Shown: positions 10,017 to 57,944 of the stretch, piece after piece
How the letters are laid out: every line of letters begins with the position of its first letter
How positions within the stretch are numbered: the first letter of the stretch is position 1
DNA from: a virus
DNA length: 64,000 nt
Strand: one strand, 5' to 3'
Virus record (IMG/VR): IMGVR_UViG_3300019776_000693
Span: 1 to 64,000 of that record
Translations under genes and position numbers: made by a program
The notes under the pieces: generated by a model
The model's input: only the letters and a program-made list of their open reading frames with translations
Database searches by the model: none
Told to the model about the DNA's origin: nothing

Positions 10017-10167
10017 TGACAGAACAAGAGAAAGAAATAATGATTCTTAAATTTAGGCGAACAGATAGTTGGAGATTTGCGGATTATTTGTTTTGGAGAT
10101 ATTTAGTAGAATCGGCGGAAAAAGAAAATACACAGAAAGAATAAAAAACAGAAAAATTAAAATAGAT

Positions 10168-12252
10168 ATGGAGTTAGATAAGAGAGTATGGTTATATGAC
10201 ATAGAAACTCTTTCAAATTGCTTTACGTATACTGCAATCGATAGAAATTCAAATGAAATTATTAAATTTATAATATGGAAAGAAAATAATCAAATTTATG
10301 AATTACTTACTCACTTAAATAATTGTGCAGGACAAATCGGATTTAATAATTTAAATTTTGACTATCCTGTAATTCATTATATTATTAAAGAGCGCAACAA
10401 ATTAGTTTCTTTAGATGGGGATAAAATAGCTAAATTAATTTATAAAAAAGCTCAGTCTGTTATTTCTCAAGAATATTCCGCAATTAAAGAGGACGAAGTA
10501 ATCATTCCTCAGTTGGATTTATTTCGTATTTGGCATTATGATAACAAAGCTCGTATGACAGGACTCAAGAAATTAGAAATAGCTATGAATTTTCCTAATG
10601 TTCAAGACATGCCTTATCCTCACGACTATAAAGTAAAAACAAAGAAAGAAGTAGAAGAAATATTAGATTATAACTTAAATGATGTTGAAGCAACAAAAAA
10701 ATTCTATGAAAAAACAAAAGATAAATTAGAATTAAGAAAAGGACTTCAAACAAAATATGGGCTTAACTGTTTAAATTATCCCGATAGTAAAATTGGAGAA
10801 CAATTAATGTTAAAATTATATTGTCATTATACTCAACAAGACGAGGAAAAAATCAAAAGACTTAGAACCAAAAGAAATTTATTTAAATTTTCAGAATGTA
10901 TTCCTAATTATATTAAATTTGAAACTCTTGAATTTAATCAATTGTTGGATTATTTAAAAGGAATTGAAGTTACCGAATTAAAAGAATCGTTTAAATATAG
11001 TTTTGAATATAATGGATTTACTTTTGATTTAGGTACAGGCGGAATACATGGGTGTATAAAACCAGGAGTTTATAAATCTAATGAAAATGAAATAATTGTA
11101 GATGCTGATGTGGCTTCTCTATATCCTTCGTTAGCAGTTACATTGGGATTATACCCTGAACATTTAGGAAGTCAATTCCCTCAAATTTATGAAGAAGGTA
11201 TTTTAAAACCAAGATTATTTGCAAAAGAAAAAATAGATGGTAAAATGCGTGACCCCATCATGGCAGACGGTTTCAAACTTTCGGCTAACAGTGTTTACGG
11301 AAAAAGTAATAGTGAGTACAGTTTTTTATGTGACCCATTATATACTTTAAAAACAACTTTGGCAGGACAAGTAGCTTTATGTATGCTATCAGAAATGTTG
11401 ATGACAAAAGTGCCTAATCTAACAATGCTTCAAATTAACACTGATGGGTTAACTGTTTCTATCCCTGTTGAACATAAAAGATTATATTGGGAAATTTGTC
11501 AGGAATGGGAAGCCAAAACAGCATTAGTTTTAGAGTATGTTGCTTATTCTCAAATGATTATTCGTGATGTAAATAATTATATTGCGGTTACAGAAAAAGG
11601 AGGAAAAATAAAATACAAAGGAACATTCAAACCTAATAGTGAAATGATTAAAGATGGAGAGTATCATAAATCTTTAAGTCAAGGTATTGTTTCTTTAGCA
11701 GTTTCTGATTATTTTTTGAAAGGAATTCCTGTAGAAAAAACAATTAAAGAAAATAAAGATATTTATCTATTTTGTAAAACATTTAATTCAACTCATGGTT
11801 GGGTATGTGAAATTTTAGATATTGACGATAAAGGTAACGAATCAAATCATCAAAAACAACAAAAAACAAATAGATACTTTTTATCTAAAAGTGGTTCTCG
11901 TTTTCGTAAATTAAAAGATGACAGAATCATTGAAGTGGAAGCTAATAAAACAGTTAAAATTTTCAATAAATATTATGAAGCTTCTTTTGAAGAATATGAT
12001 ATAGATTATGATTATTATATTGATGAGTGTTACAAAATTATTCATCGAATTGATGGAACAGAAGAAAGATTAGAACAAGAACGAAAAGAATTACGTGAAA
12101 AGGCTAAAAGAGATAAAGAAGAAGAAAATTATTTAAAATTTTGTGTAAATAAAATACCAACACAATTACAGTATAACACTTATAACAAAGAATGGTTACA
12201 AGAAAAATACGGAATTCCTGCGGAAATTAAATCATCAAAAGTTAAAATATAG
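10168..12252 (+). CDS. polB: Family B DNA polymerase with 3'-5' exonuclease
   Basis: Exo YDIET and GFNNLNFD; DVASLYPS, KLSANSVYGK, QINTDG, DVNNY. Start moved from TTG 10069 to ATG 10168. Confidence 0.93.
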   Translation: MELDKRVWLYDIETLSNCFTYTAIDRNSNEIIKFIIWKENNQIYELLTHLNNCAGQIGFNNLNFDYPVIHYIIKERNKLVSLDGDKIAKLIYKKAQSVISQEYSAIKEDEVIIPQLDLFRIWHYDNKARMTGLKKLEIAMNFPNVQDMPYPHDYKVKTKKEVEEILDYNLNDVEATKKFYEKTKDKLELRKGLQTKYGLNCLNYPDSKIGEQLMLKLYCHYTQQDEEKIKRLRTKRNLFKFSECIPNYIKFETLEFNQLLDYLKGIEVTELKESFKYSFEYNGFTFDLGTGGIHGCIKPGVYKSNENEIIVDADVASLYPSLAVTLGLYPEHLGSQFPQIYEEGILKPRLFAKEKIDGKMRDPIMADGFKLSANSVYGKSNSEYSFLCDPLYTLKTTLAGQVALCMLSEMLMTKVPNLTMLQINTDGLTVSIPVEHKRLYWEICQEWEAKTALVLEYVAYSQMIIRDVNNYIAVTEKGGKIKYKGTFKPNSEMIKDGEYHKSLSQGIVSLAVSDYFLKGIPVEKTIKENKDIYLFCKTFNSTHGWVCEILDIDDKGNESNHQKQQKTNRYFLSKSGSRFRKLKDDRIIEVEANKTVKIFNKYYEASFEEYDIDYDYYIDECYKIIHRIDGTEERLEQERKELREKAKRDKEEENYLKFCVNKIPTQLQYNTYNKEWLQEKYGIPAEIKSSKVKI

Positions 12253-12284
12253 TTAAATAATTTATATATTAAAATAATATATTG

Positions 12285-12292
12285 TATCTTTG
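12285..12292 (+). promoter_or_regulatory. Bacteroidota -7 promoter element for HNH copy 2
   Basis: TATCTTTG directly before the structured leader. Confidence 0.65.
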
Positions 12293-12298
12293 TAAAGT

Positions 12299-12396
12299 AA
12301 ATTAGAAATACGAGCCTAATTTATAATAAAGATATTAGAAAATTTTTAAAAAAGTCTATTCATTGTGTGCTCGTATCACCTTTGTTTAGGCTTTTT
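12299..12396 (+). ncRNA. Predicted structured 5' leader (two hairpins with complementary loops)
   Basis: Stem AAATTAG/CTAATTT with loop containing ATACGAGC; stem AAAAAGTCTA/TAGGCTTTTT with apical GCTCGTAT. Confidence 0.65.
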
Positions 12397-12417
12397 CTGT
12401 TTTTATAAGCCAAAATT

Positions 12418-13161
12418 ATGGGTAAAATAAAAAATAGAGTAGGTGAAAAGTACATCACAAACGAAGGATACGAAATAGAAATTATTGAATATTTTGGAGC
12501 ATTAAATTGCACCATTAAATTTAATGATAAATTAAATACCACACTTTACAATGTCGCATATCATCAAACAACTAAAAGAAATATTGAAAATCCAAATCAT
12601 CCTAAAACATATAACATAGGATATATGGGAATTGGTAAATTTCTTTCGAAAAAGAATAATATTAATACTCAACATTATGTAATATGGTCTGGTGTTTTAA
12701 GAAGATGTTATAATGAAAATGAGAGACATAAATATCCATCTTATAAAGCATCTACTGTTTGTGAGGAATGGCATAATTTTCAGAATTTTGCTGAATGGTT
12801 TGAAGAAAATTATGTAGAAGGGTTTGAATTAGATAAAGATATTTTATATAAAGGTAACAAGATATACTCCTCTGAAACATGTTGCTTTGTACCAAAAGAG
12901 ATAAACTTACTTTTTGTAAATAGTTGTAATAAACTTAGTGATTTACCTCAGGGAGTAATAAAACATAAAAATAAATATAGAGCTAGGTTTGGTAAAGATA
13001 GAAAACATATAGGTTTATTTGATACCTCCGAAGAAGCTTTTCAAGCCTATAAAACTGCAAAAGAAAAATACATAAAAGAAGTGGCAGATAAATGGCGAGA
13101 TTTAATTGATAAAAAAGTTTACCGAGCAATGTATAACTATCAAGTTGAAATAACGGATTAA
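12418..13161 (+). CDS. Free-standing HNH-like homing endonuclease with AP2-like domain (copy 2, full length)
   Basis: Same motifs as 1103..1696 plus ~50 extra N-terminal residues; both end YNYQVEITD. Confidence 0.82.
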   Translation: MGKIKNRVGEKYITNEGYEIEIIEYFGALNCTIKFNDKLNTTLYNVAYHQTTKRNIENPNHPKTYNIGYMGIGKFLSKKNNINTQHYVIWSGVLRRCYNENERHKYPSYKASTVCEEWHNFQNFAEWFEENYVEGFELDKDILYKGNKIYSSETCCFVPKEINLLFVNSCNKLSDLPQGVIKHKNKYRARFGKDRKHIGLFDTSEEAFQAYKTAKEKYIKEVADKWRDLIDKKVYRAMYNYQVEITD

Positions 13162-13191
13162 TTTAGAACAAATATAAATAACACTATTCTA

Positions 13192-13222
13192 TTGTGTGTT
13201 AGGATTATATGTTGTATATTTG
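13192..13222 (+). promoter_or_regulatory. Bacteroidota sigma-A type promoter
   Basis: TTG (13192-94)-N20-TATATTTG (13215-22). Confidence 0.78.
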
Positions 13223-13285
13223 TAAAAAGAATCTGTTTTTTATTCTTTTTTCGCGAGAAATTAACAAAATTTAACAATAAATATT

Positions 13286-13858
13286 ATGAACTTACAAGAA
13301 TTAAGACAAAAAATTTACGACAGACACTATATTTACTGCAATCAAAAATATGCAGATAGTTTACCTTATAGTTTTCACATACAGTGTGTTGAAGCTCAAG
13401 GAGAGAAATTCTTACATTTAGTAAAACAACATATAGTAAGAGCTAAATATCAAGGATGTGAATTTAATGGTGTTACAATAGAATTAGTAGTATTATTGTC
13501 TCTTTCAGCACACGACCTCCAGGAGGATGGGAGAATGACTTATAATGACATAAAAGATTTAGCTTCTGAATTAGGAAACAGTATTGCAGGTGAAATGGTA
13601 GCAGATATTGTTTATTGTGTAACTGATTTAAAAGGAAAAACACGCAAAGAAAGAAAATCTGATAAATACTATCAAGAACTTAAATCAAATAAACTAGCTG
13701 TTTTTGTTAAACTTGCAGACATTTCGGCGAATACTTTATTTAGTAAGCTTACAGGTAGTTCTATGTATGATAAATATAAATCAGAATTTAAACATTTTAA
13801 AGAGATGTGTTATATTGAAGAATATAAAGAATTTTTTGATTATTTAGAATCTTTATAA
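13286..13858 (+). CDS. HD-domain phosphohydrolase (RelA/SpoT hydrolase / Mesh1-like)
   Basis: LPYSFH, AHDLQED, VYCVTD, VKLADISAN. Confidence 0.75.
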   Translation: MNLQELRQKIYDRHYIYCNQKYADSLPYSFHIQCVEAQGEKFLHLVKQHIVRAKYQGCEFNGVTIELVVLLSLSAHDLQEDGRMTYNDIKDLASELGNSIAGEMVADIVYCVTDLKGKTRKERKSDKYYQELKSNKLAVFVKLADISANTLFSKLTGSSMYDKYKSEFKHFKEMCYIEEYKEFFDYLESL

Positions 13859-13872
13859 ATAACATCTATCTA

Positions 13873-13903
13873 TTGTTTAATTCGATTTGTTTTCATATCT
13901 TTG
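13873..13903 (+). promoter_or_regulatory. Bacteroidota sigma-A type promoter
   Basis: TTG (13873-75)-N20-TATCTTTG (13896-903). Confidence 0.78.
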
Positions 13904-13959
13904 TAGAAGAAATTATTTCTGTCTTTATCTTTTATTTGGCGGAAATTTAAAAATAATGT

Positions 13960-14202
13960 ATGGAAAATTTTGCAAGATTAACAGTGCGTCTTAAAAAAGG
14001 AGACCCTAGGCAACAAGCTAATCATTTTAAATTGTTAGATGATTTTTTTAAATTAATAGGAGGAGAAAGATTCGGGGATATTTATTCTGAAGAAACTAAT
14101 AGAGAAAACATATTATTATATAATATTCCTAAAGATAAAGAAGAATTTGGTATATTGCTTATAGATATGACAGTGAGTTTAAATAATTATATTAGAGGAT
14201 GA
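13960..14202 (+). CDS. Hypothetical protein
   Basis: First ORF after promoter. Confidence 0.6.
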   Translation: MENFARLTVRLKKGDPRQQANHFKLLDDFFKLIGGERFGDIYSEETNRENILLYNIPKDKEEFGILLIDMTVSLNNYIRG

Positions 14203-21637: not shown

Positions 21638-22876
21638 ATGAGTAAAAACAAAAACCGCAGATATCGTCTAAAAGATATAGAAGTTGAAAAATTAGGTTTG
21701 TCTCCGAATATTAGCGGAAGATATAGGCTTTCTAAAGAACAGGAAAAAGAATTACAAATAATTAGAAATGTTGACAGTGATTTAAAAAATGATATAGCAA
21801 CATATTCTATTAATTATAAAAACGATAAAGAGAAATCACAAAGAGGTTTTACAGCTATTGATGATAGTGGACAATTAATGTCAATAGAACGTTATTGTGA
21901 ATATTATGGATTAGATGTATCAAAAATACGAAGTTATAAATTGATTTCTCATACGGGATTACCCTTTTATAACTGTGTTTTCTATGAAGAAGTTATTGAA
22001 TCTGCTGTAACAGAAGAAGAATTAAAATTATTAATTTTAAAAGGTTTTAAAGACATAGAATACACCAAGATATACAAAGATAACAAAAATAAAATTGGAG
22101 TTGTTAAAATCGCAGATTTACATCTAGGAAGTTATGTTGATAATTTAATCCGTACTAAAAATTTTTCTATTGATATTTTAGCAAATAAATTATTAGAAGC
22201 TGTAGAAGATATCAATGAAAGAAACTATTCTGAGGTACATGTACATATTCTAGGAGATTTAATTGAATCTTTTACGGGACTTTCTCATAAGAATACTTGG
22301 AAAGGGTTAGATAAAGCTATGGTTGGGGCAGAAGCAGTAAAATTAGTTGTTCAAATTTTACATGATAATTTTTTATCTAAAATTACTAATCTTGGGGAAG
22401 TTAAAGTTGTGGCAGGGAATCACGATAGGGTGACAAGTGACAATAAAGAAGATGTTCAAGGAGGTGCTGCAAGTTTAGTTTGTTGGGGATTAGAATTGAT
22501 TGGTTATTCTGTTGAATTCAACCCTTTAGTTATTACACATACTATTGGAAAAATATCTCATATTTTAACACATGGTCATCACGCATTATCTAAAAAATCT
22601 ACAAAACAATTATGTTGGGACTATGGTATTCAAGGAAATTATAATTTAATTTGTGAAGGGCATTTACATAGTATTATTCAAAAATTAAATATAAACCAAC
22701 GTGACAATTATCAAACTATAAAAGATGATGCTGTAGACCATAGAAGAATGAATTGTCCATCTTTTTTTACAGGAAATTTTTATAGTGAATCTTTAGGTTA
22801 TACTTCTGAGAGTGGTTTTGTTATTGTAGAAGATAATGGTAAAGGCGTTCCTAATGTATTTTATTATGCGATTTGA
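21638..22876 (+). CDS. Calcineurin-like metallophosphoesterase
   Basis: IADLHLG, GDLIE, GNHDR, THGHH, GHLH motifs. Confidence 0.88.
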   Translation: MSKNKNRRYRLKDIEVEKLGLSPNISGRYRLSKEQEKELQIIRNVDSDLKNDIATYSINYKNDKEKSQRGFTAIDDSGQLMSIERYCEYYGLDVSKIRSYKLISHTGLPFYNCVFYEEVIESAVTEEELKLLILKGFKDIEYTKIYKDNKNKIGVVKIADLHLGSYVDNLIRTKNFSIDILANKLLEAVEDINERNYSEVHVHILGDLIESFTGLSHKNTWKGLDKAMVGAEAVKLVVQILHDNFLSKITNLGEVKVVAGNHDRVTSDNKEDVQGGAASLVCWGLELIGYSVEFNPLVITHTIGKISHILTHGHHALSKKSTKQLCWDYGIQGNYNLICEGHLHSIIQKLNINQRDNYQTIKDDAVDHRRMNCPSFFTGNFYSESLGYTSESGFVIVEDNGKGVPNVFYYAI

Positions 22877-22895
22877 TAACAAACTGTTTAACTAA

Positions 22896-22927
22896 TTTGT
22901 ACAATTAATTTTTATTTTGTATACTTG
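22896..22927 (+). promoter_or_regulatory. Bacteroidota-type promoter for GIY-YIG gene
   Basis: TTTG (22896-99)-N20-TATACTTG (22920-27), one mismatch to TAnnTTTG. Confidence 0.6.
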
Positions 22928-22933
22928 TGCTAA

Positions 22934-23035
22934 TAACTTCTTGATGCGAACACTAAGTTAATTTTAAGATATTATTTTTTACCGAGGAACTTCTTTAAAC
23001 AGCTATTCGCATTAGTTGTTTTTAGAAGTTTTCTC
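22934..23035 (+). ncRNA. Predicted structured 5' leader (two hairpins with complementary loops)
   Basis: Stem TAACTT/AAGTTA with apical ATGCGAA; long stem AACTTCT..AAACAGCTA / TAGTTGTTT..AGAAGTT with apical TTCGCAT. Confidence 0.7.
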
Positions 23036-23050
23036 ATTTTTTAAAACATA

Positions 23051-23962
23051 ATGAAAAAAGAAATTATTTGCGGAATCTACAAAATCACTTCTCCATCAGG
23101 TAAAATTTATATTGGACAAAGTAATAATATAACGAAAAGATGGACTAATTACAAAAGTATAAGTAAAAGCAATGATGGGCAACCTAAATTAAAAAACTCT
23201 TTTGATAAATACGGAGTAAACACTCATATATTTGAAGTGATTGAGGAGTGTTGTTTTGAAAACTTAGATTGCAGAGAACGTTATTGGCAAGATTTTTACA
23301 ATGCAACAAATACAGGGTTAAATTGTGTATTAACATCTTGCGGAGATGTGCCTAAAGAAATAGTATCAAATAAAGGAGAAAATCATTCAAGAGCTAAAGT
23401 TTATATAAATTTAGAAACAGGAGTTTTCTATCATGGTATTAGAGAAGCCTCTGAATCTATTTCTCATATAAGCTACAACTCTCTAAAATTTATGTTGCTT
23501 GGTAGATATCTAAACACTTCATATATAGTCAACGCCGATGATTACGTAAATAATCCTGAAACCTACTTACAAGAAAAAGAATATAAAAAAGTAATAAATG
23601 TAAAAACTAGAGAGTTGTACAAATCTGTGATGGATGTAGCTAAGATTTATGGTATAGAAGTTAATAAACTTAGAGACAGGATAACAGCAAAAAATAATAA
23701 GTCAGGTTTTATGTTTTTAGATGAATACGAAAACCACCCAAATAAAGATTCTATATTAAGTAAACCAAAAAATAAAACTAGTAAGTATGTAGGTATTTAC
23801 TATTGTAAAAAAGATAGGAAATGGTTAGCTAAATATAAAAAACAAGGTAAAAATTATACCATAGGTTATTATCCTACAGAAGAGGATGCTTATGCAGGAT
23901 ACAAAGACTATTTTAATAAGTACCCTGAATTAGAGCCAAAAGGTTTCAAACCATTAATTTAA
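23051..23962 (+). CDS. GIY-YIG homing endonuclease with NUMOD1-like repeats and AP2-like C-terminus
   Basis: GIYKITSPSGKIYIGQS...KRW..Y; ERYWQDFY; SKYVGI...KW.A...IGYYPTEEDA. Confidence 0.9.
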   Translation: MKKEIICGIYKITSPSGKIYIGQSNNITKRWTNYKSISKSNDGQPKLKNSFDKYGVNTHIFEVIEECCFENLDCRERYWQDFYNATNTGLNCVLTSCGDVPKEIVSNKGENHSRAKVYINLETGVFYHGIREASESISHISYNSLKFMLLGRYLNTSYIVNADDYVNNPETYLQEKEYKKVINVKTRELYKSVMDVAKIYGIEVNKLRDRITAKNNKSGFMFLDEYENHPNKDSILSKPKNKTSKYVGIYYCKKDRKWLAKYKKQGKNYTIGYYPTEEDAYAGYKDYFNKYPELEPKGFKPLI

Positions 23963-23968
23963 TCTAAC

Positions 23969-24008
23969 TAAAACCCTCTGATTAACTTCTTAGGGTTTTA
24001 TTTTTTAT
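23969..24008 (+). terminator. Intrinsic terminator after GIY-YIG gene
   Basis: TAAAACCCT / AGGGTTTTA stem followed by T-tract. Confidence 0.65.
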
Positions 24009-24094
24009 TAAATCGTATATCGCAATATCAGTTTACAAAATATACTTACAACGGCGTTTATTACCGTTAACTTAAAAATTCTTGAGCTTTTTTC

Positions 24095-24125
24095 TTGTTT
24101 ATATTATTTATTGTTTGTATATTTG
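24095..24125 (+). promoter_or_regulatory. Bacteroidota sigma-A type promoter
   Basis: TTG (24095-97)-N20-TATATTTG (24118-25). Confidence 0.78.
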
Positions 24126-24341
24126 TAAAATAAATCTTTCTGCTGTTTCTTTTTATGGCGGAAATTAAAACTTAGAAATTATGAAAATATTTAAAATTAT
24201 ATTAGAGCAATTAATACCATGTAAAAAGAAATCTTTTGCTTTATCTGAGGATACAGATAGTATGGAATATAAATGGTATCTTTATTTTAAAGATGAAGTT
24301 GATAAAGAATTTAAAAAAGAACAATATATAAAAGATAATCC

Positions 24342-50720: not shown

Positions 50721-53700
50721 TTAAACATCTACATTAGAAACTGCAAATTTAAAAGTTAAGCTAAATCTGCTGTCTTTTGAATAACTAAATTTATTTAAAA
50801 ACCAATCTCCTTCTAAACGTTTTAATAATTTATTACCTGTAAAAGTTATCACAGAATTATCAATTGTTTTTTCGATTTGGTTTTTATCGTAGTTAATAAA
50901 AGGTACGTTTTTTGAATTATTTCTAACTCTATCAAAAAAATAATTATACGCCCATTTAAATCCGTCTTTATTACTAATCAATATGTCTTGAGTATTATCT
51001 GAATTTGTTTTTGGGTAATTCTTATTCCCTGCAAAATTATTTTTTTGCGGAATTAAGTTTAAATATCCTGAACAAACCATATTATTCCAAATTAAAGATT
51101 TATCAAATGTACGTTCATAATCAATAGCCCAATCGTATTCGTTATGATATCTTTTAGCTTCTGTCCATAAAATAACAGATTCTAATTTTTTAGTAGCTAA
51201 ATCTGATTTTACAGGTATTTCTAACTCAAATGGATACTTATTTCCATAAAAAACTTGATACGACTTATTTGTCAATAAATGTGACCATAATCCATTGTCT
51301 TCTCCAGTAGAGTTGATACCTGATTGAAAATAATTATTATGACTTATATAATAATTAGGTTTAAAATCATAAAAACTCATCCAAGTTCCTAGTATAGGAG
51401 AATAAGCGATTGTCCATGAAACATCTTGAAAATAATCAGGGTCTTCTAATGAAACTTCTATTAAAGGACATTCGATATTTTCTGCAATAATGTTAACCAC
51501 TTCTCCTGATATTCCAACACCATTAGAATTAAAATTATAAACTCCGTTAGTTTGGTCAGCATAGTATTTCATTACGTAACTTAATGATGGTAATATATCA
51601 TTAGGTATATCTGGAGCTATATCTGTTCCTTGTAAAAAAGAAGTTTGAAAAGGAAATATTTGAATTCCTCTTTCTCTTGCATCATTAGATATATTTATGA
51701 CGTTATTCCAATCTGTTATATCATAAGCGTCGTTTAATCCAGAAGGTAAAGCATCTGTTATTAAAAATATAGCTTTTGCTGCATCGGGTCTAAATTCCCC
51801 TATTGTAAGTCCTCCAATAGTAGTTCCTGTATTATCTATTCTCTGAGTGTTGTCCAAAACTGCTCTTAAAGCTTTATCTGTTGGTTCAGGCGTTGCTCCT
51901 CCACCAATTGCTGTAAGACTTGAAACTTCTGTAAAAAATTGGGTCTCATTTTGTAGTGACATGGGTACATTAATAGTGAATAATGGTACTCCACTGAATA
52001 AACTATCATTAACCGCTACTAAGCCTAATCTATAATTATCTCCAAATTTTGCCTGAATAGCAGGTACTATTTGAGTTATAATATTATTTTTTATATTATC
52101 AATAGCAGGTTGTTGTGAACTTGTCTTATCAATAATAAATACAGCATCAATACCATTTACATCATTGCAATTGTCACAATTACTATAAAAATGACCATTT
52201 TGATAAAGTACACAATCTTGTTTTGGAATATAATCTTTTTTAGTTATAAAAACTCTTCTATATCTACTATCCCAAGCCATTGATATACCAATTCCGTTGT
52301 AATTATTATCAACATCTACATCTTTAAAATTTTTTAGTATTTTAAACGGAAGATGTTCTTTAAACCAATTTCTCATTCCTGATGGTTTTCCACCTATTAA
52401 AGAAGATATTTCTTCCATTTGTTGACCTGTAGGTTGAGTTTGAATAACTTGACCTCTCTTAGCATCCACATGAAAATGTCCAAATTCACAACTCACACTT
52501 GTTGTATTTTGTGTGCCTCCAAATCCTAATTGTGCATTGTAAAAAGAAGCACTTCTACGTTGGAATGCTACAGAGCCTCCTAAAAAATTTCTACTAGGAT
52601 TCTGCCCATCATCTACTGTGGTGTCTACTTTATTATACAAAATAGAAGTGTTTTCAAAACGAGTTAAAATAGCTTCATTTTCAATTCCTTGTACATCTAT
52701 TAGTTTTCCATAATTAGTTGGAAACTCAAAGAAATCTAATGGTCTGTATATTAACCAAGGGTCATAGCTGTTGTTTTCGCTATTATCAGGGAGTGATGCT
52801 ATAATTCCATTAGGAAAATCTGTCTTACAATCATTAAAAGTTTTATTGTAACTATTAGATAATGTTCTTAATTTTAATGGAGTGGTTTGTTTAGAATAAG
52901 TCCTATTATAAAAAAACCAATTTTTTTCTCTTATAGGTACATTTTTTTCTTGTGTCCATTCTCCTAAATCTCCTACTTGAGGGTAAAACTGTCTATGATA
53001 AGGCTCTTCTGCATATCTAAAATTAGTATTTATCCTAGTCTCACAAAGAAAGTTAGGAATACCATAATAATATAAATAAAATTTAGAAGGTGGTCTATAA
53101 TAGAATTTACTTTTAGTGTCATTATCAAAATTAAAATCACTATCTATATCAGGAAACACTTTTCCATTTTGGTCAAACTCTTTATCTATTTCATAAGAAA
53201 TATAGAATAAAGGGTTTCTTCCAATATTATTGTAAAAAAAATAATTAAATGGTGTTCTGTCAGCCTGTCCCATAGCTGTGACTAAAAACTGAGAGTGTTT
53301 TCTTTTCAACGTGTGTCTGGTAATAAATGTATCACCACCAAAAACAGATAAGCAATCAGTTCTTGGATTTGTTAAGTCACCTCTATATCCAGTACTTAAC
53401 CATTTTATAGTATTTATTGTACCATGTTGTTGTGGTAAATATGTTTTTAAAGCAACATAAGGAGATGCAATATTTCTTTGAATTTCAGTACTTCTGCCTG
53501 AATCCGATATACCTAATTCAGAAGAGTAAAATAAGCTAGAAGTATATGAATCCCTATCGTATTTTTTATAGCTATCTGGGTAAGTTAATGGGTAATCTCC
53601 AAAAGATAAAAATACAGAAGTTTCTCTATTAATGTTATTTATATCAATTCTTTTAGCAGTAACTTCATTGGTAAATCTATCTGTACCTTCTTTTAAGTAT

Positions 53701-56700
53701 TTAGATATGTTTAAAGAACGTATTTTTTGTCCTTCTTCTTGTTCTAATTGTAAAAAATTGTACTTACCTTCTGCAAAATAGTAATAAGCAAAATTATGAG
53801 GTTTACCAAGATTTCTAAAAGTTTCTAACCATTGATATCTATATCTACCATAATCTGTTATCGCTTTGGTTACATTAGCAATTCCATCTGCTACATAAGC
53901 TAATATAGATGTTACTATTCCTCCTGGATTAAATATTACTACAACTCCTGCTCCTATTTGATAGGATTGGGCTGTTGCAGATAATGTTTGTGCTGTTCTA
54001 ATAGCAGCTTCTGCTACAACTTCTAATCCTGCTAATATTCCTGCTAACTCTCTAGCCTTAGCAGTAAGTACAGTGTATTTAGGATGATTTAAAACTTCGT
54101 CAAAATGTCCTCTTGAATTACCGTACATATACCCCTGCACTGATAATTCTGTAGATAATGTAGGTCTAAAATAATCTGTTTCTGGTGAATGAAAAGTGTA
54201 GTCTGAATTACTTTCTCCAAATTCACTCTGAACTATTTGATTTAATTTATCATTAGCGTAACTATTAAACGGGTAGTTAGGATATTTTATATTTTTACCT
54301 TTTTCAGAGTATTCTCGCATATCGTATAATAACCCTGATGATAGAACACTCCTGTTTAAAGTTAAATCTCCTCTTACTATTTCATATCCTGTTATTTTTT
54401 GCCTATCTTGTGTAGATATTAAATTATTTGATTCGGCAATATCTAAAAAAGAATTAACAATTTCTTCATTTAATGTTACACCTAGTGGAAATATTACAGT
54501 AGATGCAAATGGTAATTGCCTGATATCATACATAAATGGTGATTTTGCATTATCAGGAAATTTAAAATGTCTTATGTTTCTACAAGTAAAATCCACTATC
54601 TCTTTTCCATTATCATCGAATTTCCAAAGATAATTTCCTTCTATATCAACTGTAGCAAAAGATTCTTTAAAACTATCTCTTATACTTAAAGGTATTTGGT
54701 CTTCCTTTATACTTAAAAAAGAAGAATTGTATAATTCTGTATTATCAGGATAAACCTCTTGACTTTCCCAATATGCAAAATTACCTCTTTTATAAGGCAC
54801 TGCTTTACACGCTTGTACTATTGGTTGTTCAAAAGAACAAGTCGCTGTATATTCTATTTTTTTTCTAAGTGTTATAGAGCTCCAAGAAATATCAATTCTT
54901 TTATCTTCTAAATTTCTTGTAGATATTGTATAACAACCTTTACTAGGAGTAGTTGTCCATATAAGGTTTTCATCTACGGATAATATATCACCGCTTCCTC
55001 CATCTATAACAAATGAATATTTTGTAGAACTTATTATTCTATTATCAATAGTAATAAAAAATTTCTTATTTGAAAACCAACCATTAGTTATAGTAGTATA
55101 AGGTGTTCCATCTTCTTTTGTTATAATTAAATCAGCTCCCGATTTTTCTAACTTAAATATTCCCCCTTGTTCTAAATCGACAAACTCTGAAAATATAGCA
55201 TCTGTCGATGTACAACTTTTAAATATTGACATTCTAACAGTCTGTGTTTTATCTGATATCGAATCTATTGGGGATACTATTTTTTGCTTTGATATATCTA
55301 AAATAAAGCTAGTTCTTCCATTTGTATTTCCAGAAAACCATAGTGCACCTTTATGTATTTTATCTAACCATGCAACAGCATCATATTTTACATATAAATT
55401 TCCTGTGGTATCTATTTCATCAATATTGTAAGTTATAGCGTTAGTTAAGGTTACTATATTTGAAGATATAGATAATATCCCCCCAGTTAATGCTTCAATA
55501 GCTGTTTTATGTGTTGTATAAAAAGAATTTGCAGTAACTACCATTGACACCGAGAAAGGGGTTGAAAATAAATTACCATTAATATTTACAGTCACTGAAC
55601 CTGAATCACCTGATTCAAAAGTTATATCTTCGGTTATGTCAAAATTTGAATTATTTTTTGTTGTTTTTAATTCTGATAAACTATTTGAAGAGTAATAGTA
55701 ATTATTAAAATAAGAAGCCCCGTTATTTACTACAGGATTTTGATTTTCATTTATAGTTGCAGCATAAGCACAAGATTCTTCTATAAAATCAGAATCTCTT
55801 TTATATACTGTCATTGATAATATATCAGAAGCCACTGAATCTGTTTCTTTATTACCTGATGAAGAATCTATCTTATATATATTGCATATTCTAGGAGGTA
55901 CTATCTTAGTATAATCTGCCCCGAAAACTTTAGGTACTCTAGTTGAAATTTCACCTTCAAAACTTACAGTTCCTGTTCCTGTTCCTGCTAAAGTAGCTAT
56001 AAATTCTTCTCCAACAGTATTTGAATCTGCCCCTATTGAGGTAAAATCAGTGTCTCCTACAGTTTCTATCCTGTATCTTTTACCTTTTATTATATCTTCT
56101 ACATCTATTATACTTCTTATTTCAGCTACTTCTATTATAGGTGTCCCTACTATTGTTGGAGATTCACAATCAAGACCTTCAAACGGGTCATCTGAACACT
56201 CTATATCGCTATAATCTGCATACAAGGCTTCACAAATATTTCCTCCTGTTGAATTTTCATAAAATTCACTACATTCTGCTTCGCTACTACCTGCATTGTC
56301 ATTTATGTAATCTTCCAGGTTAGTGAATTCTGTGTCTAACTCTATTGATACAGTTCCTTCTTCTATTGTGGCTATATCTTCAATTATACAAAACCTGTTA
56401 ATTTCTTCGGTAACTGTTATAGTTTCTAAATTTGTAGAGCATGGTACATCCTCCACAGTAGCGTCATTATAATATTGCCATCTCCTAGTTCTTATAGTAG
56501 AATTACAATCACTTTTATTTGCTAATATAGATGTAATATCCATATTATCTACATCAACAGGTTCTCCTGTTTCTTCATCTACTACAATATCTAAATCTTC
56601 CTCTGTTGCTATTCTACCTATAAAGGGGAATATAGAAGTTTCATAACCACCATCTAATAAAAATTTAATACCAAAAGGCACTACTTCTTCTCTATTATAT

Positions 56701-57944
56701 CCTGTATATAAAGAAATTGCAATTCCATTTTCATAGAGATTTTCAGGAGCTATATGAGATTGCCATTGAAGAAATTGTCCCATAAGATTAACCACAGGTT
56801 GTAAATTAATCTCTTTTTTAGATGTTATTCCATATTGGTATAGAATATTATTAGCTGTAGCAACTCCTTCCGATTCCTCTACATGTAATGAAATTCTAGC
56901 TAAGTTATCAACAGATGTTTCTGATTTATTTTGTTCAGTAGAATAAACTATAGAAGTATCATTTATAGTATGAACACCTTCTATAAAATACCTAGTTGCA
57001 CCTTCAATATCTGCTGTTTGTATCACAGCTATTTTATAATGTGTATATTTAGTGTCTAGTCCTTCTACATTTAATCGTATTGCAAAACCTGTTCTATCTG
57101 CTAAATTAGGTTGACCTAATATAATATTATTTCTATCAAAAATTGATATAGGGTTAGTTATTGAAAAATACTCTGATATTTCTCTTCCTTCTGCGTCACA
57201 ATATGCTATTAAAAATTCATATACGCCCATCTTTAAATTACCTCCTAATTCAATAGAAGTAGGAACTAATTGAGGAATATTAAATAGTTTAAATATTCTC
57301 ATTTTATCAAAATCAGGGCATAATAGTACAGTATCATCCGAACATACGTTTTCCTGAATAAAATAGTCTTGTATTCTATCTATATTTATATGTCTTGGTG
57401 GATTACCTACATGTGAAAAATATATAGTCTTACCGCATTTTTCATTTTTTATAACAGATTTTTTTATAGGTTGTAATATATTAAAATTAAAACCTTTTTC
57501 AGGCTCATTATTTAATACATGACATTCATCTGATATTTTTGTAGTATAGGTTTGTAATTCTAATTGTTCTAAATTTTCTAAAGGTTCTGCTAATTCTTTT
57601 ATAGAAGCACAATTAGGACAATCTAAAGTAATGTCTGATAAATCATTTATATCTTGATTGTTTTCTACAACTCCAAATTCTCCTATTCCTGTTTCTGGGT
57701 TAACTAAAAAGAAATAAGTATTTGTAGTATCTATATCATTTATAGCATGTATTACTTTAAAGCCCTCTTTAAATTTAGTAGCTAATATGTTTGATTTTTC
57801 ATTTGTAGCATTTAAAGAATTACCAGACTCGTTTTCTATATTACCATTAAGTAAATGTGTATACTCTATTTCTTTTAGCTGACTAGGGTGGCTATCTTTA
57901 TTCATCCCTACTTTACCTAATGATATGTTTTGTTTATTTGCCAT
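50721..57944 (-). CDS. Tail nozzle / stabilisation protein (crAss-like, P22 gp10-like role) with inserted vWA domain
   Basis: GMNKD N-terminus, SPETD, FGGDTFI, WTIAY..W.SFYDFKP conserved blocks; size and position. Confidence 0.72.
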   Translation of the reverse strand: MANKQNISLGKVGMNKDSHPSQLKEIEYTHLLNGNIENESGNSLNATNEKSNILATKFKEGFKVIHAINDIDTTNTYFFLVNPETGIGEFGVVENNQDINDLSDITLDCPNCASIKELAEPLENLEQLELQTYTTKISDECHVLNNEPEKGFNFNILQPIKKSVIKNEKCGKTIYFSHVGNPPRHINIDRIQDYFIQENVCSDDTVLLCPDFDKMRIFKLFNIPQLVPTSIELGGNLKMGVYEFLIAYCDAEGREISEYFSITNPISIFDRNNIILGQPNLADRTGFAIRLNVEGLDTKYTHYKIAVIQTADIEGATRYFIEGVHTINDTSIVYSTEQNKSETSVDNLARISLHVEESEGVATANNILYQYGITSKKEINLQPVVNLMGQFLQWQSHIAPENLYENGIAISLYTGYNREEVVPFGIKFLLDGGYETSIFPFIGRIATEEDLDIVVDEETGEPVDVDNMDITSILANKSDCNSTIRTRRWQYYNDATVEDVPCSTNLETITVTEEINRFCIIEDIATIEEGTVSIELDTEFTNLEDYINDNAGSSEAECSEFYENSTGGNICEALYADYSDIECSDDPFEGLDCESPTIVGTPIIEVAEIRSIIDVEDIIKGKRYRIETVGDTDFTSIGADSNTVGEEFIATLAGTGTGTVSFEGEISTRVPKVFGADYTKIVPPRICNIYKIDSSSGNKETDSVASDILSMTVYKRDSDFIEESCAYAATINENQNPVVNNGASYFNNYYYSSNSLSELKTTKNNSNFDITEDITFESGDSGSVTVNINGNLFSTPFSVSMVVTANSFYTTHKTAIEALTGGILSISSNIVTLTNAITYNIDEIDTTGNLYVKYDAVAWLDKIHKGALWFSGNTNGRTSFILDISKQKIVSPIDSISDKTQTVRMSIFKSCTSTDAIFSEFVDLEQGGIFKLEKSGADLIITKEDGTPYTTITNGWFSNKKFFITIDNRIISSTKYSFVIDGGSGDILSVDENLIWTTTPSKGCYTISTRNLEDKRIDISWSSITLRKKIEYTATCSFEQPIVQACKAVPYKRGNFAYWESQEVYPDNTELYNSSFLSIKEDQIPLSIRDSFKESFATVDIEGNYLWKFDDNGKEIVDFTCRNIRHFKFPDNAKSPFMYDIRQLPFASTVIFPLGVTLNEEIVNSFLDIAESNNLISTQDRQKITGYEIVRGDLTLNRSVLSSGLLYDMREYSEKGKNIKYPNYPFNSYANDKLNQIVQSEFGESNSDYTFHSPETDYFRPTLSTELSVQGYMYGNSRGHFDEVLNHPKYTVLTAKARELAGILAGLEVVAEAAIRTAQTLSATAQSYQIGAGVVVIFNPGGIVTSILAYVADGIANVTKAITDYGRYRYQWLETFRNLGKPHNFAYYYFAEGKYNFLQLEQEEGQKIRSLNISKYLKEGTDRFTNEVTAKRIDINNINRETSVFLSFGDYPLTYPDSYKKYDRDSYTSSLFYSSELGISDSGRSTEIQRNIASPYVALKTYLPQQHGTINTIKWLSTGYRGDLTNPRTDCLSVFGGDTFITRHTLKRKHSQFLVTAMGQADRTPFNYFFYNNIGRNPLFYISYEIDKEFDQNGKVFPDIDSDFNFDNDTKSKFYYRPPSKFYLYYYGIPNFLCETRINTNFRYAEEPYHRQFYPQVGDLGEWTQEKNVPIREKNWFFYNRTYSKQTTPLKLRTLSNSYNKTFNDCKTDFPNGIIASLPDNSENNSYDPWLIYRPLDFFEFPTNYGKLIDVQGIENEAILTRFENTSILYNKVDTTVDDGQNPSRNFLGGSVAFQRRSASFYNAQLGFGGTQNTTSVSCEFGHFHVDAKRGQVIQTQPTGQQMEEISSLIGGKPSGMRNWFKEHLPFKILKNFKDVDVDNNYNGIGISMAWDSRYRRVFITKKDYIPKQDCVLYQNGHFYSNCDNCNDVNGIDAVFIIDKTSSQQPAIDNIKNNIITQIVPAIQAKFGDNYRLGLVAVNDSLFSGVPLFTINVPMSLQNETQFFTEVSSLTAIGGGATPEPTDKALRAVLDNTQRIDNTGTTIGGLTIGEFRPDAAKAIFLITDALPSGLNDAYDITDWNNVINISNDARERGIQIFPFQTSFLQGTDIAPDIPNDILPSLSYVMKYYADQTNGVYNFNSNGVGISGEVVNIIAENIECPLIEVSLEDPDYFQDVSWTIAYSPILGTWMSFYDFKPNYYISHNNYFQSGINSTGEDNGLWSHLLTNKSYQVFYGNKYPFELEIPVKSDLATKKLESVILWTEAKRYHNEYDWAIDYERTFDKSLIWNNMVCSGYLNLIPQKNNFAGNKNYPKTNSDNTQDILISNKDGFKWAYNYFFDRVRNNSKNVPFINYDKNQIEKTIDNSVITFTGNKLLKRLEGDWFLNKFSYSKDSRFSLTFKFAVSNVDV

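Follow-up and report, generated by a model that had tools for sequence, protein, structure and literature searches.

We describe a structured RNA leader, ~100-125 nucleotides (nt) long and placed between a promoter and the start codon of the downstream gene, in the IMG/VR virus record IMGVR_UViG_3300019776_000693, of which positions 1 to 64,000 are hereafter called the window. The leader folds into two hairpins whose loops pair with each other in a kissing interaction (the kiss). It occurs twice in the window, ahead of an HNH-AP2 homing endonuclease gene (leader 1) and ahead of a GIY-YIG endonuclease gene (leader 2), and further copies are found elsewhere in this genome and in its relatives. 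The kissing-loop leader is a well-supported RNA motif, as its homology, its distribution, the covariation of all of its helices and its strand bias show. As for its function, we propose, with about evenly balanced confidence, that it is a cis-acting, terminator-like attenuator, a 5' leader RNA transcribed from a host-type promoter, and that it probably throttles the expression of the gene downstream. The parts of the two leaders are listed below, with K1 and K2 denoting the two partners of the kissing helix.

12261-12292, + strand: predicted promoter of leader 1, with TTTA (aligning with TTTG elsewhere), 20 nt and the -7 box TATCTTTG at 12285-12292
12297-12324, + strand: hairpin 1 of leader 1, core 12299-12305 / 12316-12322, its loop carrying K1
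12308-12315, + strand: K1 of leader 1, ATACGAGC, the 5' partner of the kissing helix, its 7 conserved pairs at 12308-12314; duplex energy -10.3 kcal/mol
12325-12348, + strand: A/U-rich single-stranded linker with the conserved motif WTTAARRWAWTA, here AAGATATTA
12349-12396, + strand: two-tier, terminator-like hairpin 2 of leader 1, lower stem 12349-12358 / 12387-12396, upper stem 12366-12368 / 12377-12379
12369-12376, + strand: K2 of leader 1, GCTCGTAT, in the apical loop of hairpin 2
12392-12417, + strand: TTTTTCTGTTTTTAT, a U-rich tract, followed as far as the ATG by TAAGCCAAAATT, the short, A-rich and unstructured initiation region
22896-22927, + strand: predicted promoter of leader 2, with TTTG, 20 nt and TATACTTG
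22934-22960, + strand: hairpin 1 of leader 2, TAACTT / AAGTTA, with K1 ATGCGAA at 22944-22950
22984-23035, + strand: hairpin 2 of leader 2, whose 7-nt apical loop TTCGCAT (23006-23012) is K2, followed by ATTTTTT and the ATG at 23051

Re-reading the sequence bears out the architecture that an initial annotation had given leader 1: hairpin 1 (AAATTAG / CTAATTT, loop AAATACGAGC), the linker motif (12329-12337), the lower stem of hairpin 2 (AAAAAGTCTA / TAGGCTTTTT, with one G-U pair) and its inner stem GTG/CAC, and the ATG of the HNH-AP2 gene at 12418 all lie where it had placed them, and K2 is the exact reverse complement of K1. Two of its statements need to be qualified. The 8-base-pair (bp) loop-loop pairing that it claimed is present in full, but conservation extends to only seven of the eight pairs, and the eighth pair of leader 1 is in competition with the pair that closes the upper stem in hairpin 2. 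The second leader, at 22934-23035, does have the same architecture, but its sequence is not a different one as had been stated: the two leaders are homologous and align over their full length, promoter included (nhmmer, E-values of 1e-33 and 1e-39). The transcription start (+1) is predicted near 12297 in leader 1, at the first base of the extended stem of hairpin 1, and 2 nt upstream of hairpin 1 in leader 2. Across copies the linker is 20-40 nt long, A/U-rich and unpaired, it keeps WTTAARRWAWTA, and RNAalifold on 12 copies finds no conserved pairing partner for it. In hairpin 2 an internal loop separates the lower stem from an upper one of 3-9 bp, which is capped by an apical loop; in most copies this apical loop is made up of exactly the 7 nt that pair with hairpin 1. 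K1 and K2 are ~45-60 nt apart within one leader, and the kiss is the most G/C-rich segment of a leader that has 20-30% G+C overall. The ATG follows hairpin 2 at a distance of 11-22 nt in an A-rich, unstructured context, and the 3' region is kept as TTTTC..TTT.TAAGCCAAAAT in copies ahead of unrelated endonuclease families.

Seen in a single sequence, a pattern of two hairpins with a kiss is not beyond chance. A strict descriptor (hairpin 1 stem of at least 5 bp, hairpin 2 loop of 7-9 nt, kiss of at least 7 nt with at least three G/C) gives 8 and 7 matches on the two strands of the 130.6-kilobase (kb) genome, which has 28% G+C, while genomes simulated with a first-order Markov model give 3-18 matches per strand; a loose descriptor of two hairpins with complementary loops gives ~150 matches per strand of the genome. 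Descriptor scans of this kind are useless for discovery. Leader 1 has a fold z-score of only -1.9 and leader 2 one of -4.87. We accept the leader as real because homologs and covariation support it, not because of the pattern in any one sequence.

The covariation is extensive. Covariance models were built from 3 copies (R1) and from 12 copies (R2), with E-values that are rough, and 19 copies were aligned to R2 with the kiss entered as a pseudoknot. In this alignment, which was fitted to the structure, standard pairs make up 90.6% of the cells, a value that none of 500 shuffles attains (68.9% in shuffles), pairing falls to 34-45% once the partners are slid, and 23 of the 30 pairs show changes on both sides. 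The signal is present in every helix: hairpin 1 is 88.6% paired, with five of its eight pairs changed on both sides; the kiss is 97.5% paired, with four of seven; and hairpin 2 is 82-90% paired in the lower and 98.2% in the upper stem, nearly all of its pairs having changed on both sides. The comparison of cognate with non-cognate loops is independent of these alignments and agrees with them: among ten distinct kiss sequences, cognate loops are complementary over 6-8 bp and non-cognate loops over 2-5 bp, with mean duplex energies of -9.5 and -2.1 kcal/mol, respectively. When later copies are counted, at least 12 distinct kiss sequences have kept their complementarity. Already between leaders 1 and 2 the differences in the kiss are two-sided (A-U to G-C and G-C to A-U), and copies that the model misaligns keep the complementarity with wholly different letters (GGTCTCAA/TTGAGACC in L109, AGTGAAG/CTTCACT in L120 and TGGCGG/CCGCCA in L093; L and G labels stand for our loci and genomes). 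Thus the Watson-Crick complementarity of the two loops is maintained by compensatory change, and the structured single-strand element with a loop-loop pseudoknot that had been suggested from leader 1 is real, with a length of ~100-110 nt and with covariation in the kiss, in hairpin 1 and in the two tiers of hairpin 2. Furthermore, G-U cells outnumber A-C cells by 30 to 10 in the structure-fitted alignment and the U tract is found on the + strand only, both of which point to the + strand, and hence to RNA, as the folded molecule.

This genome, recorded as that of a complete phage, has direct terminal repeats and no close cultured relative, and no public sequencing runs are listed for the DNA. 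Three copies lie in it: those of the window (12245-12420 and 22880-23053) and a third outside it (G000:83864-84013), which is more diverged, has the kiss GTAGTGC / GCACTAC and has the lower-stem sequence AAAGTCCTA...TAGGGCTTT in common with leader 1. The covariance models and a pattern scan recovered another ~20 copies from contigs of related phages and from metagenome contigs. Full-length leaders lie directly 3' of the family-A DNA polymerase gene wherever an endonuclease gene sits there (L083, L093-L095, L097, L099, L101 and L109), and where that site is endonuclease-free (L096, L098, L102 and L108) there is neither a leader nor an intergenic gap. The model search found leaders at other loci of these phages (L118, L119, L120, L141 and L138), and the pattern scan of metagenome contigs added L155, L156, L157 and L161. 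When viral contigs were scanned for exact matches to a pattern with the linker motif, 25 loci came up, all of them chance matches by nhmmer. Searches against cultured phages with blastn and megablast gave nothing meaningful, and the closest cultured polymerase is at most 36% identical. A divergent variant precedes a GIY-YIG gene at L100:6044-6170. In it an upstream strand, GCTGAGTCATC, that is apparently not in a hairpin pairs over 11 bp (two of them G-U) with GGTGATTCAGC in the loop of a terminator-like hairpin, which makes it an H-type pseudoknot and not a kiss. Several genomes (G000, G001, G003, G004 and G006; L118-L120, L141, L150 and L151) have two to three leaders each, whose kisses are all different and mutually non-complementary; this may reflect selection against cross-pairing or chance.

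The genes behind the two leaders of the window are free-standing and belong to different nuclease families.

12418-13161, + strand: HNH-AP2 free-standing homing endonuclease gene, 247 amino acids (phrog_953, HNH endonuclease, 1.5e-67), preceded by leader 1
23051-23962, + strand: GIY-YIG endonuclease gene with a C-terminal AP2-like domain, 303 amino acids (Pfam GIY-YIG, 1.5e-6), preceded by leader 2

The AP2 assignments are Pfam matches under the curated cut-off, weak in the HNH protein (E-value 2.5e-4) and at 3e-6 and 27.9 bits, with a cut-off of 33.3, in the GIY-YIG protein, which also matches homing endonucleases in PHROG. The HNH-AP2 gene is inserted 3' of the DNA polymerase gene (10069-12252) and the GIY-YIG gene 3' of an Mre11/SbcD-like exonuclease gene (21638-22876). 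A group I intron with an endonuclease open reading frame (ORF) was rejected: there is no Rfam intron match, and the flanks are complete, different genes (DNA polymerase and HD phosphohydrolase; exonuclease and methyltransferase) and not the halves of one.

The link with an endonuclease that had been drawn from leader 1 holds in that nearly all leaders stand directly ahead of homing endonuclease genes, but it is not a link with one type of nuclease, as at least four families are involved. Downstream of leaders we find HNH-AP2 (the window, L083, L157, L155, L161 and L138), HNH of phrog_59 (L119), GIY-YIG with or without NUMOD3 or AP2 (the window, L109, L093, L118 and L120) and T5orf172/MUG113 with DUF723 (L095, L101, L097, L099, L094 and L156). 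The HNH-AP2, GIY-YIG and T5orf172/MUG113 proteins, and the winged-helix proteins described below, have 200-460 amino acids. Conversely, of 65 HNH-AP2 homologs from other phages whose upstream regions were examined, only the one at L083 has the leader, and therefore it belongs to the endonuclease cassettes of this clade and not to one protein family. A second locus illustrates how such cassettes change: a near-identical leader stands ahead of a GIY-YIG gene in one phage and of HNH-AP2-like genes in two others, and the homology breaks off where the U tract ends, ~10 nt or less from the ATG. This break shows that ORFs are swapped behind a constant 5' module.

The third copy stands ahead of a gene for a 278-amino-acid protein that resembles HTH_36-type winged-helix phage proteins and has no Pfam or PHROG match and no recognisable nuclease domain. 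Peptide patterns yielded no close relatives of this protein; distant homologs, 29-32% identical, came from the records of two relatives, where they are preceded by leaders with other kisses (CTAGGAATC/GATTCCTAG and GTGGAAACC/GGTTTCCAC), so that the leader precedes the winged-helix gene in three genomes. A tRNA-Gln(UUG) (transfer RNA) gene lies just upstream of the third copy (G000:83746-84847, L136:1247-2348).

The proposal of an attenuator starts from the promoter. All leader copies have the consensus TTTG-N20-TAnnTTTG, and TTTG-N18-21-TAnnTTTG is present ahead of many other genes of this genome. This promoter is predicted to be of the Bacteroidota sigma-A type, and it is from the promoter type alone that the host is predicted; in Flavobacterium, the -7 box spans -12 to -5 (PMC9723704). 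The other consensus promoters of this genome give unstructured leaders of 12-30 nt, and the median 5' untranslated region in Flavobacterium is 24 nt (PMC9723704). Because the other promoters here give such short and unstructured leaders, the ~110-nt structured insert stands out as a special module. Its 3' end is terminator-like: about half of the copies have a G/C-clamped lower stem (CCCC/GGGG, CCCCCGC/GCGGG, CCCCACC/GGGTGGG or CCCTC/GAGGG) followed directly by (A)TTTTTATTTT, a tail that occurs in nine copies other than leader 1 and that resembles the canonical terminator at 23972-24007, 3' of the GIY-YIG gene. Hairpin 2 with its U tract thus resembles an intrinsic terminator, a feature that the initial annotation had overlooked. 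From the U tract to the ATG the gap is only 0-22 nt across copies, which leaves no room for a second promoter, and therefore the ORF would be read from the promoter of the leader. A promoter, a structured RNA, a terminator-like hairpin with a U tract and an ORF, in this order and with no second promoter between, make up the layout of a transcription attenuator.

If this is correct, transcription would start at the Bacteroidota sigma-A-like promoter, with +1 at or near hairpin 1, and the RNA would fold into the 5'-terminal hairpin 1, which would cap its 5' end, and the long two-tier hairpin 2, the loops joining in a 7-bp intramolecular kiss. The kiss might lock the A/U-rich, interrupted hairpin 2 into the terminator fold and compact the leader. 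Most transcripts would then stop at hairpin 2, leaving a short RNA, and the downstream ORF would be carried only by read-through molecules, with a low level of product as the outcome. In this way a potentially harmful gene could be kept low and shielded from neighbouring transcription. The promoter and leader would be the constant 5' module of the endonuclease cassettes of the clade, ORFs of different families being swapped just 3' of the U tract.

Several observations weigh against an attenuator. A simple terminator scan did not flag hairpin 2 of the two copies in the window, whose stems are A/U-rich and interrupted, because of their internal loops and few G-C pairs. The U run of these copies is itself interrupted (TTTTTCTGTTTTT) and partly paired with the upstream A run, and U-rich runs are common at the base composition of this genome. 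RNAalifold on 12 copies detects no covarying alternative antiterminator and no further conserved helix, and the kiss, which can coexist with both hairpins, does not have to influence termination. Moreover, the leader is also present ahead of the winged-helix gene, and therefore restraint of a toxic nuclease is not the whole rationale.

The main rival, which we regard as unlikely, is a control of translation or messenger RNA (mRNA) stability that does not involve termination. Hairpin 1, which begins at the predicted +1, would shield the transcript from decay that depends on the 5' end, and the kiss-locked hairpin 2, which adjoins the region that a 30S subunit needs single-stranded, would tune ribosome loading on an mRNA without a Shine-Dalgarno (SD) sequence; that the A-rich initiation region is kept up to the ATG across unrelated ORFs fits this idea. 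There are also precedents, as mRNA structure tunes initiation in SD-less Bacteroidota (PMC6847099), and T4 endonuclease genes are controlled by hairpins at the ribosome-binding site, with a stable hairpin just upstream of seg43(25) that sequesters nothing (PMC2988022). However, none of the conserved helices includes the start codon or the 10-20 nt upstream of it, no pairing that involves the initiation region was seen to covary, and the G/C clamp and the U tract at the foot of hairpin 2 would be left unexplained. A pairing of the promoter or linker with the start-codon region, by which read-through molecules would have their start codon sequestered, was suggested by RNAalifold on three sequences and was not kept with 12.

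It is distinctly improbable that the leader is a small RNA gene, whose product of ~105-115 nt, ending at hairpin 2, would act in trans on the phage, the host or a competitor while the endonuclease ORF uses read-through. A promoter, a structured RNA and a terminator-like end are the anatomy of such a gene, the loop sequences are G/C-rich and highly diversified, with two to three copies per genome whose kisses are mutually non-complementary, and phage phi14:2 has abundant intergenic non-coding transcripts (10.1101/2020.03.07.982082). Nevertheless, K1 and K2 occupy each other, the compensatory changes in the kiss imply that the selected partner is intramolecular, every copy is directly followed by an ORF with a conserved initiation region, and no trans target emerged, although none was looked for.

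The two remaining readings fare progressively worse. A DNA-level element, be it a cruciform or single-stranded DNA signal, a protein operator (for example for AP2 or winged-helix domains) or a recombination or mobility site for cassette exchange, would fit the swapping of ORFs exactly at the 3' edge of the leader and its place as the constant part of cassettes, and I-TevI is known to repress its own promoter via an operator (PMC2988022). But three nested helices and a pseudoknot covary, as expected of a folded single strand and not of duplex operators, the U tract and the promoter impose a polarity, and the leader precedes proteins with unrelated DNA-binding domains; together with the strand asymmetry (the G-U excess over A-C and the U tract of the + strand only), this disfavours the DNA mobility signal that had been raised for leader 1 and makes any DNA-level function very unlikely. 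A nuclease-binding RNA cofactor or guide, also raised initially and comparable to the omega RNA upstream of IscB, has in its favour that nuclease ORFs have a structured RNA encoded immediately upstream, but we consider it extremely unlikely given that this one RNA stands ahead of four or more unrelated endonuclease families, the presence ahead of a winged-helix gene without a nuclease domain argues against it, the variable segments pair mutually and leave no free guide, HEARO and all other Rfam families fail to match, and the proteins are small, ordinary homing endonucleases with DNA-binding domains of their own.

Returning to the attenuator, we speculate that the promoter and leader form a portable, self-insulating module exchanged by unrelated selfish endonuclease genes, in which the loop-loop lock would set the escape from the terminator and the kisses would have diversified against cross-pairing. 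Such a 'kissing attenuator', factor-independent or gated by a phage factor, would be a design not described before; we offer this extended version tentatively and consider it rather doubtful.

The leader matches no known RNA family. Rfam 15 at gathering thresholds gave no match in the 64-kb window, and at a permissive E-value nothing overlapped the leader in 12000-14200; at the same permissive E-value, the sole match at six loci with divergent copies was a tRNA. The comparison with Rfam that the initial annotation had called for thus leaves the leader without a known family. A full-text literature search on kissing loops with phage homing endonucleases found nothing relevant.

The nearest functional parallels come from T4-type phages, which restrain endonuclease genes by terminators, ribosome-binding-site hairpins, processing and autorepression, and in which the mobE terminator stops ~30% of transcripts while a promoter downstream serves the next gene (PMC2988022). 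In these elements (the I-TevI, segB and Aeh1 mobE hairpins, the mobE and segF terminators and the seg43(25) hairpin; PMC2988022), cis RNA structures or terminators likewise lie 5' of free-standing endonuclease genes and keep expression low, a role that is only proposed for the leader, and in both groups a separate promoter 3' of the endonuclease gene, a predicted one in our case, serves the next phage gene. The leader differs in that its promoter lies wholly upstream of hairpin 1 and not inside the structure, and in that the start codon is not sequestered, the ATG and the preceding 11-22 nt being outside all conserved helices. Moreover, endonuclease families that are unrelated to one another, and one gene for a non-nuclease, have its conserved two-hairpin kissing fold in common; the leader is not related in sequence to the T4-type elements, and its predicted host is of another phylum.

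Loop-loop pairing is known from other RNAs. ColE1 RNA I/RNA II and R1 CopA/CopT are intermolecular antisense pairs that control plasmid replication through loop-loop contacts. As in these, the loops of the leader pair over ~7 nt, often the whole 7-nt loop of one hairpin, and the loop sequence sets the specificity, but the kiss of the leader is intramolecular and adjoins a U tract and an ORF. Purine riboswitches have a loop-loop kiss between L2 and L3. Like such riboswitch or attenuator leaders, the element described here is promoter-proximal, and its fold, which lies upstream of a terminator-like expression platform, is organised by contact between loops; unlike riboswitches, it is A/U-rich, has no multi-way junction or conserved ligand pocket and little conserved unpaired sequence beyond the linker motif, and no alternative antiterminator was detected for it. 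The put RNAs of phage HK022 suppress downstream terminators and have no loop-loop pairing. By description, they too are two stem-loops immediately 3' of a phage promoter that act in cis on polymerase, as is proposed for the leader, whose second hairpin, in contrast, is itself terminator-like. HEARO, the omega RNA of IscB (RF02033), is likewise a structured RNA upstream of an ORF for an HNH-containing nuclease; in our case there is no RF02033 match, no IscB-type protein with RuvC and HNH and no free guide, and several nuclease folds are involved. We therefore regard the leader as a new candidate family of cis-regulatory RNA whose mode of action would be that of known leader attenuators and of the RNAs that regulate T4 endonuclease genes.

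Promoter-like sites are present 3' of both endonuclease genes of the window. At 23972-24127, a canonical terminator (AAAACCCT...AGGGTTTTATTTTTT) directly 3' of the GIY-YIG gene is followed by a consensus promoter for the downstream genes, which makes the endonuclease gene an insulated transcription unit. At 13195-13285, 3' of the HNH gene, another consensus promoter, TATATTTG, and behind it a short hairpin (AAAAAGAAT/ATTCTTTTT) that has a U run precede the next gene, whose ATG is at 13286; this may be a simpler leader with a promoter-proximal hairpin. Outside the window, at G000:122823-123020 (L130), a consensus promoter, a G/C-richer structured region of ~150 nt without an Rfam match and a clean terminator precede ribonucleotide-reductase-like genes, and the structured region may be another attenuator or a small RNA. 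On the reverse strand of L151, ~300 nt upstream of the winged-helix gene and just ahead of its leader, a consensus promoter leads into a short structured segment and then a strong terminator (AAAGCTGT...ACAGCTTTTTATTTTTTT), an arrangement that may represent a small RNA gene. The window also encodes, at 50721-57944 on the - strand, a virion protein of 2,407 amino acids that matches phrog_37948 (E-value 0) but lacks a DFDxD motif and is without a sequence match in the PDB; a crAss-like status of the phage was considered and was not confirmed.

The control of selfish homing endonuclease genes is known almost only from T4-type coliphages. The leader is a conserved and strongly covarying RNA solution in a clade of uncultured Bacteroidota-associated phages, where it serves several endonuclease families. 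As a compact element of ~110 nt it is suited to assays of termination, translation and stability, its natural and orthogonal 7-nt kissing pairs could serve as RNA parts, and it is a candidate RNA family for the Rfam-type annotation of phage genomes. Finally, the exchange of ORFs behind a constant regulatory module bears on how endonuclease elements spread.

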